A program made the position numbers and the translations under genes. A stretch of 64,000 bases of DNA, taken from positions 47,127 to 111,126 of the forward strand of contig JBNGCP010000002.1 of NCBI GenBank assembly GCA_049974845.1. The letters run 5' to 3'. Under the pieces are notes generated by a model. It was not told the origin of the DNA and did no database searches. It saw nothing but the letters and a program-made list of their open reading frames with translations. How positions within the stretch are numbered: position 1 is the first letter of the stretch; the number at the start of each line of letters is the position of its first letter. Shown one piece after another: positions 1-21,742 of the stretch. Origin of the DNA: Anaerolineae bacterium (GTDB taxonomy: Bacteria > Chloroflexota > Anaerolineae > B4-G1 > SLSP01).

Positions 1-1296
1 GTCATCGACGAAGCCTTCGACTGCTGGCGCGAGGGCAAGACACCCTATGATTACCATGTGGCGTTTGCTGACTGGTGGCAGCGTGACCTCGACAGCATGC
101 TCTACCGCGACCGCAACCATCCCTCGATCATCATGTGGAGCATTGGCAATGAGGTTGGCGAACGAAACGGTCGCTCACGGGGCGCCGAGATCGCCCGTGC
201 ATTGGCTGACCGCATTCGAGAGATCGATCCTACTCGCGCCGTCACCGCCGCCATCAACGGCGGTCACGATCGATGGCCGTGGGAAGAGACCGACGTCGTC
301 TTCGAGGCTCTGGATGTCGGCGGCTATAACTATCAAGAGAGGCAGTATCGACCCGATCATGAGCGCCACCCGCAACGGATCATGTATGGCTCTGAATCCA
401 CCGCGGGCGAAGCCTTCGAGCATTGGACCGCCGTTGAGGAGCTCCCATACGTCATCGGTGACTTCGTCTGGACTTCGCTTGACTACCTCGGCGAGGCCGG
501 CATAGGGCGTGTCCACTTCGAGGGTGAGACCCGTCAGTTCCTCGGCGAATACCCCTGGCATCAGGCCAACTGCGGCGACCTCGACCTGTGTGGCTTCAAG
601 CGACCCCAGTCCTACTATCGGGACGTCCTCTGGAACAGAGGGAGCAGAGTATGGATCGCCGTCCACGCACCCCTTCCTGTGGACAAAGAGCCGACGACCA
701 CCTACTGGGGTTGGCCGTTGGTCAGCCCAAGCTGGACATGGCCGGGGCACGAGGGTGAGACGTTCAAGGTCGATGTCTACTCACAGTGTGAGCGTGTGGA
801 GCTCTTCGTCAACGGCACATCGCTAGGTGTCCAGCCAACGGGCCCTGCCGAGCGGCACATCGCTTCTTTCGAGGTGCCCTACGAGGCCGGCGTGCTCCAC
901 GCCGCCGGCTACGATGGGGGTGAGAAGGTCGCCGAGTGGGAGCTGCAGACCGTCGGCAGCCCTGCCGGGCTCAGGCTGATCCCTGATCGCGAGGAGCTCA
1001 AGGCGGAGCCCGGCGATCTGAGTTTCGTCACCGTCGAGGTTGTCGACAAGATGGGACACGTGCATCCGGGCGCGGATAACATGATCTACTTCACCATCTC
1101 CGGTCCCGGCGTCATCGCGGCGGTGGGCAATGGTAATCCCGAAAGCGAGGAGGGCTATCGGGGCAACAGCCGTACCGCCTTCCAAGGCCGCTGCCTGGTC
1201 GTGGTTAAGACAACGGGCGCTCCCGGCAAGATCCACTTACGCGCGCAAGCCGATGGGCTGGCGATCACCGAAACGACGTTGACTGCAAAGGCTTAG
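1..1296 (+). CDS. Glycoside hydrolase family 2 (beta-galactosidase/beta-glucuronidase-like), 5'-truncated at the window edge
   Basis: Open frame from nt 1. GH2 catalytic-region motifs: DYH..F..WW, RDRNHPSIIMWSIGNE (acid/base Glu), C-terminal Ig-like/DUF4982-like tail. Stop at 1294-1296. Confidence 0.8.
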   Translation, partial: VIDEAFDCWREGKTPYDYHVAFADWWQRDLDSMLYRDRNHPSIIMWSIGNEVGERNGRSRGAEIARALADRIREIDPTRAVTAAINGGHDRWPWEETDVVFEALDVGGYNYQERQYRPDHERHPQRIMYGSESTAGEAFEHWTAVEELPYVIGDFVWTSLDYLGEAGIGRVHFEGETRQFLGEYPWHQANCGDLDLCGFKRPQSYYRDVLWNRGSRVWIAVHAPLPVDKEPTTTYWGWPLVSPSWTWPGHEGETFKVDVYSQCERVELFVNGTSLGVQPTGPAERHIASFEVPYEAGVLHAAGYDGGEKVAEWELQTVGSPAGLRLIPDREELKAEPGDLSFVTVEVVDKMGHVHPGADNMIYFTISGPGVIAAVGNGNPESEEGYRGNSRTAFQGRCLVVVKTTGAPGKIHLRAQADGLAITETTLTAKA

Positions 1297-14929: not shown

Positions 14930-15076
14930 CTATTCGGTTGAGCGCGCTTCTGCAATCATCGCCTGCCGCGCCCGCAGCTTGCGTTCGACCTGACGGCGAC
15001 GCCAGGCAATGGAAACCGCCAGGCCCAGCGGGACAGTACAGAAGATCGCGTAGGCCAGGCCAAGATGGATCAGCAT
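14930..15076 (-). CDS. ccmD: Haem exporter protein CcmD (small single-TM protein)
   Basis: Not in the ORF track. A 48-codon ORF, ATG 2 nt after the ccmC stop with GGAGGAGG upstream. MLIHLGLAYAIFCTVPLGLAVSIAWRRRQVERKLRARQ: one TM helix followed by a basic tail, typical of CcmD. Confidence 0.6.
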   Translation of the reverse strand: MLIHLGLAYAIFCTVPLGLAVSIAWRRRQVERKLRARQAMIAEARSTE

Positions 15077-15078
15077 CG

Positions 15079-15777
15079 CTACACCTCCTCCCGCGTTAAG
15101 ACGTCATCCAGTGCCGCCAGTCGATCCCGAGCACGCTCCAAGGCGATGCGTTGCCGGAGCAGGGCCCCGTAGACGAGGGTAAAGGCCGCGATTGCAGCCA
15201 GGAGTGTGTGGAGCATGCGGGGCGTCAAGGCCATCTCTCCGCCTGCCAGAATCTGCGGATGTATCGTGCGCCACCACCGGATCGCAAACCAAGAGAGCGG
15301 GACGGTGACGAAAGCGAGCACACCGTAGACGGCAGCAAAGCGCGCGACCCGTTCCCCGTGCACCGTCGACGCGCGAAGCATCACATAAGCCACGTAGAGC
15401 AACCACTGCACCGCGGAGATCGTCAATCGGGGCTCCCATGTCCAGTACGTGCCCCAGACAGGCTTGGCCCACAAAGAACCTGTGACAACGGCCATCGTGA
15501 TAAAGGCAAGCCCGATCTCTGCGGAGGAAAGACTGAGGATGTCCCACTGCCGGCGTCCCTGCACAAGGTAGAGCACGCCTGCGACGAAAGTCACGAAGAA
15601 CGCAAAGAAACCGATCCACGCGGAGGCGACGTGGAAGTAGAAGATCCGCTGTATCTCCCCCATCGTCGCCTCGCGCGGCGCATAGGCAAAGACCATCACC
15701 AGAGCCACAGCAAACGCAGCGACACTGACAATGCTCAATAACCGGCCTGCCAACTGCTCTGGTCGCCTGCTATCCAT
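15079..15777 (-). CDS. ccmC: Haem exporter protein CcmC
   Basis: WWD domain WGTYWTWEPRLT, conserved His-containing loops, about 6 TM helices. GGGAGG RBS. Confidence 0.9.
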   Translation of the reverse strand: MDSRRPEQLAGRLLSIVSVAAFAVALVMVFAYAPREATMGEIQRIFYFHVASAWIGFFAFFVTFVAGVLYLVQGRRQWDILSLSSAEIGLAFITMAVVTGSLWAKPVWGTYWTWEPRLTISAVQWLLYVAYVMLRASTVHGERVARFAAVYGVLAFVTVPLSWFAIRWWRTIHPQILAGGEMALTPRMLHTLLAAIAAFTLVYGALLRQRIALERARDRLAALDDVLTREEV

Positions 15778-15856: not shown

Positions 15857-16528
15857 CTAGACCTCCACGACATATTCGAAGGTGAGCACCGAGACAGCCG
15901 TCATGACCAAATCGTAGACCACCAGAATCCGTATCCAGGCGCCCATCTCCCCCAATGGCAGCCCCTCCAGCAGCCCCGCCGTGGCTCTGGCAGCCGCGAT
16001 CAGCAGGGGAACCACGAGCGGCAGCAGGAGAATCGGCAACATCACCTCTCTGGCCCGCGTGTTGACAGCGATCGCAGCGAGCAGTGTACCGACCACAGCA
16101 TAACCAATCGTCCCCAGGACCAGCACCCAGATAATTCCTGCCCTGATCAGGCTGATGTTGAAGAAAACCGTTCCCAGCGGCAGGAGGACGATTTCCACAA
16201 GGAACATCAGAACCAGGTTGCCCAGCGCTTTACCAAAGAAGATCACGATGCGATCCGCCGCCGCGAGCAACAACCCGGACATGCCTCCACTGTGGTGCTC
16301 TCGGGCCATCGACCGGCTGAGGCCAAGCGTCCCGGAGAAGGCAATCGTCGTCCAAAGAACGCCCGGTGCTGCAGCCTTTCCAGCGGCCCCACGAAGATCG
16401 AGCGCAAAACTGAAGCTGAGGATCGCGATGATCGCGAAGACGAACATAGCGCTCAGGATCTCCCGGGTGTGGAGTTCAGCAGCTAGGTCCTTGTGCACGA
16501 TCGCGCCGATCTGACGGAGGCTATCCAT
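15857..16528 (-). CDS. ccmB: Haem exporter permease CcmB
   Basis: CcmB-like 6-TM permease, 223 aa from the internal Met (MDSLRQIGAIVHKDL). The longer ORF-track start would overlap ccmA by about 90 nt. Confidence 0.8.
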   Translation of the reverse strand: MDSLRQIGAIVHKDLAAELHTREILSAMFVFAIIAILSFSFALDLRGAAGKAAAPGVLWTTIAFSGTLGLSRSMAREHHSGGMSGLLLAAADRIVIFFGKALGNLVLMFLVEIVLLPLGTVFFNISLIRAGIIWVLVLGTIGYAVVGTLLAAIAVNTRAREVMLPILLLPLVVPLLIAAARATAGLLEGLPLGEMGAWIRILVVYDLVMTAVSVLTFEYVVEV

Positions 16529-17285
16529 CGTGTCCCCGCTCAGCGAAGCCACGCGAGGAAAGGGGCTCGCGCAGCAGCTCCCGATACCGGGCAGGAAAGG
16601 CCGCGGCATCTCCCAGCGACTCGTCGGTGATGATCCGACCCCTGCGCAAAACGATCACCCGCTCGGCCAGTCGCCCCTCGGCAGCCGGTTGATGGGTGGT
16701 CAACAGCAGCGTGCAGCCTGCGTCCACCAGCTCTGCGAGCAACTCAGTAAGGGTATCGACCGCGAGCGGATCCAACCCTGTGTAAGGCTCGTCTAGAAGC
16801 AGCAGCCTCGGCTTATGGATCAGCGCCCGCACGACGGCGAGGCGCTGCTGCATCCCGCGCGAAAACGTCCGAACCAGATCGTGGCGACGTCCCTCCAGCC
16901 CGACGCGGGTCAACAGCCCATCAATCCCGGCATGTTCCGGCGCCAACCCATACATCGTGGCGTAGAACCGCAGATTCTGCCACGCGGTGAGATCGTCATA
17001 GAGGAGCGTCTCGTGCGAGACGAAGCCGATCAACGAACGCACCTGCCCTCCCGCCACCCCAGGGTCCAAGCCGGAGATCCGCACGGTCCCGGCAGTGGGG
17101 CGGCTCAGCGTCGCCAGAATGCGCAGCAGCGTAGTCTTACCGGCGCCATTGGGACCGACGAGCATCACGCGCTCGCCCTCCTCGATAGCGAGGTCGACCC
17201 CGGCAAGCGCGACGTGAGGGCCAAAACGCTTCTCCAGCCCGTGGACCCGGATCACACGTGGCGGCCCTCCGCCCGACCCATCCAC
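16521..17285 (-). CDS. ccmA: Haem exporter ATP-binding protein CcmA (ABC ATPase)
   Basis: Walker A GPNGAGKTT, ABC signature FSRGMQQRL, Walker B LLLLDEP. Confidence 0.9.
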   Translation of the reverse strand: MDGSGGGPPRVIRVHGLEKRFGPHVALAGVDLAIEEGERVMLVGPNGAGKTTLLRILATLSRPTAGTVRISGLDPGVAGGQVRSLIGFVSHETLLYDDLTAWQNLRFYATMYGLAPEHAGIDGLLTRVGLEGRRHDLVRTFSRGMQQRLAVVRALIHKPRLLLLDEPYTGLDPLAVDTLTELLAELVDAGCTLLLTTHQPAAEGRLAERVIVLRRGRIITDESLGDAAAFPARYRELLREPLSSRGFAERGHDG

Positions 17286-18248
17286 TTACTCGCGACCACA
17301 CGACACTCCGCACTCATCCCAGCCCCCGCCGCCAACGTAATCCTGCAGCCGAGCTTTGAGCGCCTGCCGCTCCTCCAGATACGCGGCCTCTGACACCTCA
17401 CCCGCAGCATACCGCACGTCCAATTCCGCCATCGCCGTCACCGCCCGTCTTGCGCCCTCCGGCACGCGAGGAAGCGGCGGCGACCGCCAGAGCATCGCCG
17501 CAAGCCCTGCCCCGGCCAACACGGCGCCGGTACCCACAGCGATCTCGATCCCCACGGGAGGGCCTGCCGATGCTGCCACGGGACGCGCCTCCATTCCCTC
17601 GGCAACGGCACCAGAAGCGGGCGATCCGGGCACGAGCTGAAAGGCGACCGCCTCGCCGGCGGCAAGCGGATCGCCCCTGTAGGCGACCGCCGTCTGCCCC
17701 CCTACCTCCATCGGACCCATCGACGTCAGCCCCGGCCCCTCAAGCTGCCAGGCCTCGCCGACCAACAGGATCACGATGGAATGCACCGCCAGCGGAACGG
17801 TGCGGGAGATGGTTTCACGCGGCACCAGAGGCAGATCGTAGAGGAACCGCGTCTCCACCGTCCCGACCCCAGGCGAGATCGGTCGCGTGTCCGCAATAGA
17901 GTTCGCGCCAAGCCGGTATCGGTCGGGGGCCTCCGCGCTCTCGTCGACCCTGACGTTGGTAGCCTCCCTAGGCAGCGAGAAGACGACGGTCACGCCCTCC
18001 CCCGGGCCCTCTGACAGGCCAGTGTAGACCGTATCCCCGGTGTTGCCCAAAAGATAGTACTCAGATATCGTCAGGGTTTCCTCAGCCGGAAAGAGAAAGA
18101 GGTGCAACTGATCGATCACCGGGCCGCCATCGGGTTGCGGCTGGGCGAGGGTCGGCTGTCCCGTGCGTGCGCCGAGAAACCCAACGATCAACAGCACCAG
18201 ACCGGCCCATCGCAGACGGTGGAGACGAGAGGACCTATCCCGCTGCAT
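17286..18248 (-). CDS. Hypothetical membrane-anchored protein (signal peptide/anchor, extracytoplasmic domain, C-terminal TM and SHOCT-like tail) embedded in the ccm operon
   Basis: Hydrophobic N-terminus, Gly/Ala-rich TM near the C-terminus, then ELDVRYAAGEVSEAAYLEERQALKARL (SHOCT-like). Its stop abuts the ccmA start. Confidence 0.5.
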   Translation of the reverse strand: MQRDRSSRLHRLRWAGLVLLIVGFLGARTGQPTLAQPQPDGGPVIDQLHLFLFPAEETLTISEYYLLGNTGDTVYTGLSEGPGEGVTVVFSLPREATNVRVDESAEAPDRYRLGANSIADTRPISPGVGTVETRFLYDLPLVPRETISRTVPLAVHSIVILLVGEAWQLEGPGLTSMGPMEVGGQTAVAYRGDPLAAGEAVAFQLVPGSPASGAVAEGMEARPVAASAGPPVGIEIAVGTGAVLAGAGLAAMLWRSPPLPRVPEGARRAVTAMAELDVRYAAGEVSEAAYLEERQALKARLQDYVGGGGWDECGVSCGRE

Positions 18249-18254
18249 CCCGAC

Positions 18255-18515
18255 CTAGTCCTCCACCAGCCGAGCCCCGCAGTGGGGACAGTATCGGTGC
18301 TCGGGTTTGACCGGCTGGCCACATTGGTGGCAGAAGCCAGCCGAATCGACAGCGGCCGCGCGTCCTTCGCCCTGCTGCAGCGCACGTCGCTCGCGCGCGA
18401 CCCACGCCTCGATCAGAGCGTCGGCGTCCGTCGTTCCGCGACGAAAGGGCAACGCTACGTAGGCCGTCAGCACGATCAGCGTCCCCACCCCAATCAGCAG
18501 CGCCCCAATAGTCAT
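18255..18515 (-). CDS. Small membrane protein with C-terminal zinc-ribbon (CxxC...CPHC), embedded in the ccm operon
   Basis: N-terminal TM helix. FCHQCGQ...YCPHCGARL four-Cys ribbon. Confidence 0.5.
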   Translation of the reverse strand: MTIGALLIGVGTLIVLTAYVALPFRRGTTDADALIEAWVARERRALQQGEGRAAAVDSAGFCHQCGQPVKPEHRYCPHCGARLVED

Positions 18516-18520
18516 CGTCT

Positions 18521-20989
18521 TCAGTCTCCCAGGAGTGAGTCCAACTGCGCTGTCAGCTCCACCTGTGACACCGCGCCCACGTACACTGCCGCCACCTGTC
18601 CCTGAGCATCGATCACGAAGGTCTCCGGAACCTTGGTGACGCCATAGGCCTGGGCCGCAAGGTCGGAGGCATCAAGTCCGATGGGATAGCTCAATCCATA
18701 GGCCGACGCGATCTCCTCGACCGCCGCCCTGTCCGAATCGTAGGCAACACCCACGAACACGACACCCGCGCCCTGGTACGCTTCCCAGGATGCCTGCAGA
18801 TCAGGTAGCTCGTCCTTGCAGGTGGGGCACCAGGGAGCCCAGAAGTTGAGCACGACGACTTGTCCTCGCAAGTCGCTCAGCGCCAGCGCGTCCCCGCTCA
18901 GCGAAGAGAGCCGAAACTCGGGCGCCGCGTGACCGACGTGAGGGCGACCCAACGCCTTCACAGCCGTCCCGTGCCGCGCGCCCCACATCGCCCAGGCGCC
19001 CCCCGCCAGCAAGCCCACGATGACCATCGCAGCCACCGCGTTCCACGCGCCGGCAAGCCCCCTGGGCCAGAGCGCCAGCGCGCCGCCTGCCAGGAACACG
19101 AGCCCGCCCAGCCAGAGGAAATTCGCGAGGGCGTTGATCAGGATCCTGACGGTGATCGTCGTGCCGTCGCCACTCCAACCAGCCAGGATCACATAAAGAT
19201 CCTCACGCAGGGCAGGGCGCAGCGCCGGCACCGAGAACGTCTGCTCGTAGTTCTGATAGCGGTTGACCCGTGGCTCCAGCGTGACCAGATACTCATCCTC
19301 ACCATAGACACTGAGGCTGGCCCACGTGCTGAGATGGTCGCCGACCATCTCTTGCGAAAGCAGATCGAACACGAGCGTGTACTCTCCGATCTCGATCGGC
19401 TCGCCGGACGCCATCACCATCTCCTGTTCAAAGGGATAGAGGCGTGTCCCAATGACACCCACGGCCATGAATATCACGCCGAGATGGACGAGATATCCAC
19501 CATACTTGCGCCGCTGCGTCCGCAGCAGGTCCCAGAGCGCGTTCAGAGGCGCGAGATCGGTGCGTCGGCTTCGTTGTGCGACGCCCTCTCCGTACTCAAT
19601 CAGGACGGTCGTCGCGGATAGACCCACCAGCCCAAAGGCGATTAGCGACACCGGTTTGTCAAATCCAGCCACGAGCGCCGCCCCGACCGCCACGAGCGCA
19701 CCGAGGGCAATCAGCCACGCCCGGCGCTTCAGGCGACGCACCGTTGCAGCTGCACGACCCAGGAGCGGGCACACGCCAATGAGCAGGATCAGAAGGGCAA
19801 ACTGCGGCCCGGTGACGCGGTCAAACCACGCCGGACCAGCCTCAAACTGCTGCCCCAACGCCAGATCTGTGATCGTCGGGAGCACGCTGCCCACAAAGAC
19901 GGACAGCGTCAACGTCATAAATACGAGCAACGTGAGGAAGAAGGCGCCATCGCGGGACAGGAGCGGCGGCTCTGAAGATGCAGAGCTGAGGTCAGCGCTC
20001 CGCCACAGGATCAGACCCACGCTGACACCGAGGGATGCCAGAATACCGGCGAGATAATAGCCGCCAAGGTTTGACACCGCGTAAGCGTGGACCGACTGAA
20101 TGGCGCCGCTGCGGGTGGCGAAGGTGCCAAAGAGCACCAGCACGAAGGAGAGAGTCACGAGGACGTAGTTCCAAACCCGGAAGCCGCGTCGTTCCTCCTG
20201 CATGACGGCGCCGTGCAGCAACGCCGTCGTCGTAAGCCAGGGCATCAACCCAGCGTTCTCCACCGGATCCCATCCCCAGTAGCCTCCCCATCCCAGGACG
20301 TCATAGGCCCACCGCATGCCCAGCAACAACCCGAGGCTAAGACCGATCCACGCGACCAAGGTCCAGGGATGGACCACACGGGTCCAGAAGCGATCATTCT
20401 TGGTGATCAGCGCAGCGAGCGCAAAGGCGAACGGCACCGACAGGCCGACATACCCGACGTACATCGCCGGCGGATGGAAGATCATGCCCGGGTGACGCAG
20501 CAGCGGATTGAGGCCCTGACCGTCGGTGAGGGGCCGCGGAAGCTGGGTAAAGGGGTTGGAAAGCCACAGCATCGCCCCGACAAAAAGGGCCCCGATCAGC
20601 CCCAAGACGACCGTCGCCCACGGGATTAGAGGGGCGGCGCGCTCATCACGGATGCGGATGGCGAGCGCCGTGAAGACCGCCTGGAAGAAGCACCATAGCA
20701 ACAGAGAGCCCTCTTGACCGGCCCAGATCGCCGACAGCTTCAAGTAGATTGGCAGGGCTTGCGAGGAATGCTGGGCAACGTAGCGAATGCCGTAGTCTCC
20801 GCTGAGGAAGGCCTCTGTCAAAGCAATAAGGGCCAACCCCAGCAGCGCCGCTGCGCCGTACAGAGCGTTACGGGCGCTCTGCCACCACCTAACGTCTCGC
20901 CGGTAGATGCTGATGGCGCTCGCCAGAGCGCCATAGAGGGTCGCGGCCCACGCCAGGCCACTGAAGACCGTCCCGAGGTCCGCTAACAC
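18521..20989 (-). CDS. ccmF: Cytochrome c-type biogenesis protein CcmF fused to a C-terminal TlpA/CcmG(DsbE)-like thioredoxin domain
   Basis: CcmF WWD motif WGGYWGWDPVENAGLMPW over a multi-TM body of about 650 aa. C-terminal roughly 170 aa carry VVLNFWAPWCPTCKDELP (thioredoxin CxxC). The chosen GTG start at 20989 sits 1 nt after the ccmE stop with GAGGA upstream. The alternative ATG at 21055 overlaps ccmE by 64 nt. Confidence 0.85.
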   Translation of the reverse strand: MLADLGTVFSGLAWAATLYGALASAISIYRRDVRWWQSARNALYGAAALLGLALIALTEAFLSGDYGIRYVAQHSSQALPIYLKLSAIWAGQEGSLLLWCFFQAVFTALAIRIRDERAAPLIPWATVVLGLIGALFVGAMLWLSNPFTQLPRPLTDGQGLNPLLRHPGMIFHPPAMYVGYVGLSVPFAFALAALITKNDRFWTRVVHPWTLVAWIGLSLGLLLGMRWAYDVLGWGGYWGWDPVENAGLMPWLTTTALLHGAVMQEERRGFRVWNYVLVTLSFVLVLFGTFATRSGAIQSVHAYAVSNLGGYYLAGILASLGVSVGLILWRSADLSSASSEPPLLSRDGAFFLTLLVFMTLTLSVFVGSVLPTITDLALGQQFEAGPAWFDRVTGPQFALLILLIGVCPLLGRAAATVRRLKRRAWLIALGALVAVGAALVAGFDKPVSLIAFGLVGLSATTVLIEYGEGVAQRSRRTDLAPLNALWDLLRTQRRKYGGYLVHLGVIFMAVGVIGTRLYPFEQEMVMASGEPIEIGEYTLVFDLLSQEMVGDHLSTWASLSVYGEDEYLVTLEPRVNRYQNYEQTFSVPALRPALREDLYVILAGWSGDGTTITVRILINALANFLWLGGLVFLAGGALALWPRGLAGAWNAVAAMVIVGLLAGGAWAMWGARHGTAVKALGRPHVGHAAPEFRLSSLSGDALALSDLRGQVVVLNFWAPWCPTCKDELPDLQASWEAYQGAGVVFVGVAYDSDRAAVEEIASAYGLSYPIGLDASDLAAQAYGVTKVPETFVIDAQGQVAAVYVGAVSQVELTAQLDSLLGD

Positions 20990-20990
20990 G

Positions 20991-21470
20991 TCAGTCCTCG
21001 ACCTGCTCGGGAAGATCCTCAGCGTACTTGGAGGGACACTTAAGAAGGAGATCATCCGCGTAGAAGATGCCGTCCGCCCTCAACTGACCGCGGACAATCG
21101 CTTGCGCCTCGCTCTTGAGGAGATCAGGCTTTACCCCATCATAGGTGACCTGCAGTCGCGATCTGGATGGATCCTGAACCGCAGTACGTAGAACGCCGGC
21201 AAGCCCATCCGCCGCCTCGATCGCCTCAAGATCCCCCGGTATCTGTACCATCGTGAAGGTGACCCGGGGCGCGCTCTGATCATACTCAATGGTCTCGCCG
21301 ATGACAGCACCGGAGACGGTGAGCCTGCGCCCTTGCGCATCGGCACCTAACGCCTCAAGCTCCTCAATCGTCATGAAGAAGCTCGCGGTGCTTCCCGTGT
21401 TGCTGGCTATCAGGTAGATCACCGCAGTAATGATGAGAACACCTGCGATGAGGAAACTGCGTTTCTGCAT
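20991..21470 (-). CDS. ccmE: Haem chaperone CcmE, archaeal-type variant with CPSKY (Cys) haem-binding motif
   Basis: N-terminal TM anchor, OB-fold region (RLTVSGAVIGETIEYD...RVTFTM), and C-terminal KCPSKYAE in place of the canonical HxxxY. Confidence 0.8.
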   Translation of the reverse strand: MQKRSFLIAGVLIITAVIYLIASNTGSTASFFMTIEELEALGADAQGRRLTVSGAVIGETIEYDQSAPRVTFTMVQIPGDLEAIEAADGLAGVLRTAVQDPSRSRLQVTYDGVKPDLLKSEAQAIVRGQLRADGIFYADDLLLKCPSKYAEDLPEQVED

Positions 21471-21742
21471 CAAACACACTCCATCACCACGATATCAGTC
21501 GAATCAGGAAAAGCCCTGCTCGATCGCAGCCTGTATCAGGATACACGAGTAGTATACGAGTGTCACCCGGTGAGGCAACCTGCTGTTCGGGCTAGGGCAG
21601 TCGCAGTTGGCACCAAAGCGCCATCGGCATGACGAAGGCAAAGGTGCTGAACCTAGCTGCGATGATCCTCCCCTCAGCCTGGAACGCTAGTCTGGCACAC
21701 AGTACGCATGCAGAATAGCGTAGATAAGTGTATACTTAATAG

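Follow-up and report, generated by a model that had tools for sequence, protein, structure and literature searches.

A predicted cysteine-type CcmE and a CcmF–thioredoxin fusion in a ccm operon of Anaerolineae

The locus studied here raises the question of what a cysteine does at the position where CcmE, the haem chaperone of cytochrome c maturation (Ccm), canonically carries its haem-binding histidine. The gene lies on contig JBNGCP010000002.1 of an Anaerolineae bacterium, in a stretch of 64 kb that was analysed as a whole and is called the window below. The initial annotation had described a CcmE with the motif CPSKY instead of the haem-binding histidine and had called the variant archaeal in type. 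Our data bear out this description, the motif and coordinates being exact, and the variant corresponds to the 'System I*' first described in archaea and Desulfovibrio (PMC3601427, PMC9084895). From its sequence, the open reading frame (ORF) is predicted, with a probability of roughly 0.88, to encode a functional cysteine-type CcmE, namely a periplasmic System I* haem chaperone heading a complete ccm operon. The gene and its motif are located as follows.

20991..21470, minus strand: ccmE, membrane-anchored haem chaperone of the cysteine type (System I*), 159 amino acids (aa), assigned by Pfam match, 100% identity and fold
21024..21038, minus strand: CPSKY motif, Cys145 to Tyr149, predicted haem-attachment cysteine and axial tyrosine, assigned by alignments and conservation

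The membership of the product in the CcmE family was evident from both sequence and fold. It scored 74 bits against Pfam CcmE (PF03100; cut-off 24.6, E=1.3e-20), and it is 100% identical to the NCBI protein 'cytochrome c maturation protein CcmE [Anaerolineae bacterium]' from a metagenome-assembled genome. The ORF starts with an ATG, preceded by GGAG 8 nucleotides (nt) upstream, and a GTG at 21479 is an alternative start; the C-terminal end in the translation of the minus-strand ORF reads ...LLLKCPSKYAEDLPEQVED / ...DDLLLKCPSKYAEDLPEQVED / ...FYADDLLLKCPSKYAEDLPEQVED. The AlphaFold2 (AF2) model, obtained from a 28-sequence alignment with a mean predicted local distance difference test (pLDDT) score of 80, shows a transmembrane (TM) helix at residues 2–27, then an oligonucleotide-binding (OB) fold and a disordered tail (149–159, pLDDT <50). 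Foldseek comparison of the model with the PDB gave CcmE structures as all of the top matches (8ce8_E at E=3.6e-8, followed by 1lm0, 1j6q, 1sr3 and 2kct), so that the single N-terminal TM anchor and the OB-fold β-barrel of a CcmE are both present. Against the NCBIfam CcmE equivalog models (PRK13254, PRK13150, PRK13165 and others), the best score was 60 bits with a cut-off of 126, which leaves the protein outside the histidine-type families.

Concerning the position of the cysteine, Cys145 is encoded by TGT at 21036–21038 and Tyr149 by TAC at 21024–21026, both on the minus strand. HMMER alignment against solved chains paired the segment LLLKCPSKYAE with VLAKHDENYTP of Escherichia coli CcmE (8ce8_E, 1sr3), whose His130 binds haem, and also with VLAKHDENYM of Shewanella putrefaciens (1j6q) and LMTKCP of Desulfovibrio vulgaris (2kct). 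In a MAFFT alignment of the solved-structure CcmEs with 10 diverse cysteine-type CcmEs, Cys145 shared a column with E. coli His130 and the D. vulgaris cysteine; the possibility that the cysteine lies outside the haem-binding position was thereby checked and not borne out. Tyr149 fell in the column of E. coli Tyr134 in the pairwise and the MAFFT alignments alike. As the last β-strand of the model spans 136–144, Cys145 comes straight after it, and Cys145 and Tyr149 form the [H/C]xxxY motif at the start of the flexible C-terminal tail. The replacement of the haem-binding histidine by cysteine, a hallmark of System I*, is therefore present in this protein.

Both residues were invariant in the 28-sequence alignment (58–77% identity), and they were kept in sequences down to 30–50% identity, among hundreds of Chloroflexota homologues. 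This conservation across homologues excludes a chance origin of the motif. It also bears on the view that ccmE is a decaying relic, in which the exchange of histidine for cysteine would mark a loss of function. The low scores against the proteobacterial equivalog models might be read in that way, but the ORF is intact and has a Shine–Dalgarno sequence, the cysteine and tyrosine persist at the low identities given above, and a complete operon with conserved synteny occurs in 80 species-level genomes. Judged from the sequences, conservation effectively refutes the relic reading, which we regard as extremely improbable.

The same motif proved to be widespread. CP[STA][RK]Y was found in 119 of the 120 best homologues (cluster representatives, 59–100% identity), these being the ones whose tails were inspected, and C-P-x-[KR]-Y in 84 of 84 related loci, with no histidine motif among them. 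When one genome of each GTDB species was scanned with motif patterns, at least 590 confirmed relatives were obtained, the best 80 of which all belong to Chloroflexota (Anaerolineae and Thermoflexia) and include the cultured Anaerolinea thermolimosa. Further, when 1.84 billion representatives at 50% identity were searched exhaustively with HMMER, 1155 matched at or under an E-value of 1e-3 and 231 at or under 1e-10; of the 150 best representatives, 105 had a clear C[PAS]xx[YF], none was of the histidine type, and the remainder were fragments or had odd tails. These numbers show that the variant had been called uncommon in bacteria with some overstatement, the more so as Stevens et al., who named System I* in 2011, already gave three bacterial groups as hosts, namely delta-proteobacteria, chloroflexi and firmicutes (PMC3601427). 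CPSKY is the majority motif in the same review, with 25 of 36 variants. The cysteine-type CcmE is thus the standard form in Anaerolineae, a real and ordinary finding: the replacement of histidine by cysteine, the CPSKY motif and the occurrence in Chloroflexi have all been published, and the gene already carries the CcmE annotation.

The surroundings of ccmE are those of a maturation operon. The gene heads a co-directional, tightly packed set of minus-strand genes in the order ccmE, ccmF fused to a thioredoxin domain, a zinc-ribbon gene, a gene for a 320-aa protein, ccmA, ccmB, ccmC and a ccmD-like ORF, and CcmE is therefore encoded together with CcmABC(D) and CcmF. The members downstream of ccmE are the following.

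18521..20989, minus strand: ccmF fused to a CcmG/ResA-like thioredoxin domain, from Pfam, 6zmq and ResA-type matches
18818..18832, minus strand: WCPTC, predicted active site of the fused thioredoxin domain, from the sequence motif
18255..18515, minus strand: 86-aa membrane protein with a C-terminal four-cysteine zinc ribbon, Pfam Zn_Ribbon_1 at E=4e-8
17286..18248, minus strand: 320-aa membrane protein, from the ORF and its conserved operon position
16521..17285, minus strand: ccmA, ATPase of an ATP-binding cassette (ABC) transporter, TIGR01189 at 141.5 bits (cut-off 131.6)
15857..16528, minus strand: ccmB, Pfam CcmB at E=2e-26
15079..15777, minus strand: ccmC, WWD protein predicted to load haem onto CcmE, TIGR01191 at E=2.3e-35
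14930..15076, minus strand: ccmD-like, 48-aa single-TM protein, from its position after ccmC and near-cut-off scores of hidden Markov models (HMMs)

The ccmF product contains the Pfam domains Cytochrom_C_asm, CcmF_C, AhpC-TSA and Redoxin. Its CcmF part matched Thermus thermophilus CcmF (6zmq) at E=1.3e-92 over aa 26–666, the thioredoxin part matched ResA-type proteins at E=1e-22 to 2e-26, and an extra TM helix joins the two. In the alignment to 6zmq, the WWD motif WGWDPVEN and the histidines in IFHPP, LLHG, SVHA and LVHL are retained; together with CcmF_C, these features identify a member of the CcmF/NrfE family, with a TIGR00353 score of 397 that is below the trusted cut-off of 569. CcmC likewise has its WWD motif, WGTYWTWEPRL, and histidines in FYFHV and RTIHP. 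The ccmD-like product scored just under the cut-offs (Pfam CcmD PF04995, E=6.3e-5 and 23.4 against 25.6 bits; TIGR03141, 24.9 against 25.95), and it has a counterpart after ccmC in 16 other loci. This ORF is too short for default ORF lists.

Concerning the gene starts, the longest ccmF ORF (18521–21055) runs from an ATG at 21055, gives 844 aa and overlaps ccmE by 65 nt, and the longest ccmB ORF, from an ATG at 16609, overlaps ccmA by 89 nt. Both of these starts are probably wrong, as a GTG at 20989 for ccmF (822 aa, with GAGGA 5 nt upstream and 1 nt past the ccmE stop) and an ATG at 16528 for ccmB fit the N-termini of homologues. These starts would imply tight translational coupling. Upstream of ccmE, approximately 70–100 nt away and inside the 290-nt gap to the divergent neighbour gene, the following promoter matches were observed.

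21538..21578, minus strand: two sigma-70-like promoter matches that overlap, seen at the level of the consensus only (3 matches, 1.2 expected)

Comparison with the named systems places this protein beside the Desulfovibrio and archaeal forms. E. coli CcmE (H130xxxY134; 1SR3, 8CE8) shares the TM anchor, the OB fold, a haem residue at the start of the tail and the partners CcmABC, CcmF and probably CcmD, whereas it has histidine in place of the cysteine of the window protein, which scores under all the NCBIfam equivalog cut-offs. The System I* CcmEs of D. desulfuricans and D. vulgaris (CxxxY; 2KCT) share the cysteine at the His130 position with a proline next to it and the tyrosine four residues on, as well as the OB fold and the flexible tail, and their operon is likewise without ccmH; these data come from Allen 2006 and Goddard 2010 as they are summarised in PMC3601427. 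The identity is approximately 20–35% over the aligned part, however, and the window protein alone of the two has an insertion of about 22 aa.

21171..21239, aa ~78–100, minus strand: two-helix insertion in the OB fold of CcmE, lineage-specific, from alignment and AF2 model

The inserted segment, PGDLEAIEAADGLAGVLRTAVQD, is modelled as helices 81–86 and 90–99. In the MAFFT alignment it occurred in Chloroflexota-type CcmEs and a few others, and it was missing from E. coli, S. putrefaciens, D. vulgaris and many cysteine-type CcmEs. The Desulfovibrio operon differs further in having no CcmG, whereas the window operon has the CcmG-like domain fused to CcmF and two extra conserved genes. By its published description, the archaeal CcmE (Methanosarcina acetivorans, C120; PMC9084895) resembles the window protein in CxxxY and in the lack of CcmH, which in the present case holds for the 64 kb; in contrast, archaeal systems are without CcmD and can do without CcmG and CcdA, whereas a CcmD-like gene and a CcmG-like domain are both found in the window operon.

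Based on these relationships, a pathway can be proposed. CcmC, with its WWD motif and two histidines, would present haem to CcmE, and Cys145 would bind it, by analogy with Desulfovibrio and Methanosarcina through a thioether to a vinyl group, with Tyr149 as the axial ligand. CcmAB and the CcmD-like protein may then release holo-CcmE using ATP, and CcmF would take over the haem with its WWD domain and conserved histidines and attach it to the CXXCH of the apocytochrome. The CcmG/ResA-like thioredoxin domain, tethered to the CcmF C-terminus by its own TM anchor, may keep the CXXCH cysteines reduced. We infer the covalent binding and the bond chemistry from two experimental systems. According to the summary in the review, haem is attached covalently to the D. 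desulfuricans CcmE, whose operon supports the maturation of cytochromes c in E. coli with neither CcmH nor CcmG present (PMC3601427). In M. acetivorans, haem binding is lost with the C120A exchange, and C120H makes the protein unstable (PMC9084895).

Several points weigh against the assignment as a functional System I* chaperone. Lying far under all the NCBIfam equivalog cut-offs, the CcmE is, by sequence, distant from the characterised proteobacterial proteins, and it has the additional two-helix insertion seen in the model. In the 64-kb window, neither a c-type cytochrome substrate nor CcdA/DsbD was seen (Pfam on part of the ORFs). The experimental support comes, by analogy, from proteins outside Chloroflexota, namely those of Desulfovibrio and Methanosarcina. 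In addition, the CcmE of D. vulgaris reportedly bound haem non-covalently in vitro through its cysteine in a nuclear magnetic resonance (NMR) study, and the covalent cysteine–haem bond is therefore a putative one.

The latter point would suit a chemistry in which the thiolate of Cys145 is an axial ligand, or in which haem is bound there non-covalently or transiently, with a handover unlike that of the histidine type and of the Desulfovibrio model. According to the review, a reverse Michael reaction would not readily cleave a thioether, and the bond has been assumed only by analogy (PMC3601427); the E. coli H130C variant binds haem and cannot pass it on (PMC9084895). On the other hand, covalent haem was found on the cysteine-type CcmE of D. 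desulfuricans in vivo, as the review summarises (PMC3601427), and C120 was needed for haem staining in M. acetivorans (PMC9084895), while the conserved tyrosine four residues downstream of Cys145 would already supply an axial ligand. Thiolate ligation or non-covalent holding is thus improbable in our view, and covalent attachment through Cys145, as proposed above, is preferred. In either direction, histidine and cysteine are not interchangeable in CcmE (PMC9084895, PMC3601427).

The second part of the initial annotation, that the cysteine usually accompanies loss or divergence of CcmH, held for the locus itself and less well as a general rule. No operon protein matched CcmH (PF03918), and no ORF in the six frames of the 64-kb window matched the A. 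thermolimosa CcmH in phmmer. A motif scan of the six frames (CXXCH, CXXCK, [LIVM]RCxxC, WCxxC) found the thioredoxin site of CcmF and otherwise out-of-frame or implausible segments; with CXXCH or a CcmH-like RCxxC in no real ORF of the window, no cytochrome c or CcmH was found there. The lack of CcmG, known from the Desulfovibrio operon as another trait of System I*, does not apply, as a ResA/CcmG-like domain with WCPTC is fused to CcmF. The link between the cysteine and CcmH absence is loose: 31 operons described below combine a cysteine-type CcmE with ccmH, and the absence of CcmH, which belonged to the original definition of System I*, is not regarded as characteristic in the 2011 review, CcmH being kept in approximately one third of the bacteria with a cysteine-type CcmE (PMC3601427).

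Mapping the window proteins onto the 84 related loci revealed a nearly constant gene order in two architectures. Both ccmF and the thioredoxin were seen in 73 loci; a fused ccmF::CcmG-like gene without ccmH occurs in 42 of them, and in the other 31 ccmH lies between a ccmF and a thioredoxin gene of their own, without exception. The cysteine-type CcmE was present in both architectures, which indicates that the substitution came before the loss of ccmH and can be separated from it. In a neighbour-joining tree of the CcmF core, a single split parted the two types (23 against 38), which fits one evolutionary event; most simply, and with the direction being inferred, this would have been a deletion of ccmH together with an in-frame joining of ccmF and ccmG.

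These data also bear on the idea that ccmH is encoded elsewhere in the genome and that a normal CcmFH synthetase works with the cysteine-type CcmE. The search for ccmH reached across 64 kb of the genome, sister Anaerolineaceae possess the gene, and the one third of bacteria noted above retain it. However, the place that ccmH takes in the sister clade, between ccmF and ccmG, is closed by the in-frame fusion in 42 of 42 fused-type loci, with no ccmH found within ±10 kb of any of them, the window itself is without one, and the fused and ccmH-carrying types are separated by the single split in the CcmF tree. A ccmH encoded elsewhere is therefore unlikely, and a probably CcmH-free system with CcmF fused to a thioredoxin domain is the reading that we follow.

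The ccmH-carrying architecture is exemplified by A. thermolimosa IMO-1, which, along with other Anaerolineaceae (L076, L051, L070 and others), shares the gene order and the cysteine-type CcmE with the window. Its operon consists of ccmE (CPTRY), ccmF (685 aa), ccmH, a ccmG-like thioredoxin gene (191 aa), the zinc-ribbon gene, a gene for a 671-aa protein, ccmA, ccmB, ccmC and a small ORF, which is weakly CcmD-like (PF04995, E=0.012). The ccmH product has 173 aa, matches PF03918 at E=3e-24 and carries the motif LYCPVC. Thus ccmF, ccmH and ccmG are three genes in this family, whereas in the window ccmH is gone and ccmF and ccmG form one ORF. The 671-aa protein, the homologue of the 320-aa protein, contains two cytochrome c domains and a CarboxypepD_reg-like domain, whereas the window protein has no CXXCH. 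The thioredoxin site also differed between the architectures: it was WCKPC in 23 of 23 ccmH-type loci and variable in the fused type (WCPPC, WCPSC, WCPTC, WCAPC and others), where a simple pattern search found WCxxC in 31 of 38. This variability in sequence could point to a different redox partner once CcmH had been lost.

Two genes between ccmF and ccmA have no assigned role, and both are conserved as members of the operon in most loci, whichever architecture these have. The zinc-ribbon protein has one N-terminal TM helix and a length of 86 aa in the window and 183 aa in A. thermolimosa, and in most loci a homologue stands at the same place, with the thioredoxin on one side and the 320-aa gene on the other. 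In three fused-type loci (L021, L026 and L030), ccmF::thioredoxin leads directly to ccmA without either gene, which indicates that both are dispensable in some lineages. The possibility that the two proteins replace CcmH was considered and rejected, since both occur with ccmH and these three fused-type loci lack both.

The 320-aa protein is laid out as a signal/TM segment, an extracytoplasmic β-sandwich, a TM helix and a cytoplasmic helical tail. No sequence family matched it, and word-indexed searches gave at least 3 homologues with the single sequence and at least 8 with a 32-sequence profile. Its model, from a 7-sequence alignment and of moderate confidence (pLDDT 71), comprises a confident β-sandwich at 43–207, the TM helix and two cytoplasmic helices; the β-sandwich resembles OST1/ribophorin I at the level of the modelled fold, with M1-aminopeptidase N-domains scoring nearly as well. 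The family has an invariant histidine (His49 in the window protein) and a conserved motif in the cytoplasmic tail. This tail motif, IAALD..F.AG..E..Y..RR.LK, found in the 320-aa protein and the A. thermolimosa zinc-ribbon protein, bears at most a tentative likeness to the cytoplasmic loop of CcmI, for which HMM searches gave no support; neither CcmI/CycH (TIGR03142) nor a tetratricopeptide repeat (TPR) matched the zinc-ribbon or 320-aa proteins at E≤10. We tentatively suggest, as a rather doubtful proposal, that the tethering of CcmG is the compensatory feature of CcmH-free Ccm, and that the zinc-ribbon and ribophorin-I-like β-sandwich proteins, the latter with its invariant histidine, are accessory components not recognised so far, which would act on the unfolded apocytochrome or in the organisation of the complex.

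Taken together, this locus is more unusual in its fusion and its absent ccmH than in its cysteine-type CcmE, which alone adds nothing new. No description of a CcmF–CcmG fusion, of the ccm systems of Anaerolineae or of the dichotomy between CcmH-carrying and fused operons was found in the searchable literature, and the 2011 review stated that bioinformatics had found no compensatory feature for CcmH-free System I* variants (PMC3601427). The Anaerolineae provide a matched pair of operons with the same cysteine-type CcmE, one with CcmH and one without CcmH and with CcmF fused to CcmG, and two conserved genes without an assigned role are embedded in this cytochrome c maturation operon. As a natural experiment, this pair makes the CcmF::CcmG fusion a concrete, testable candidate for what compensates the absence of CcmH, and the fusion may render CcmH dispensable in these bacteria.
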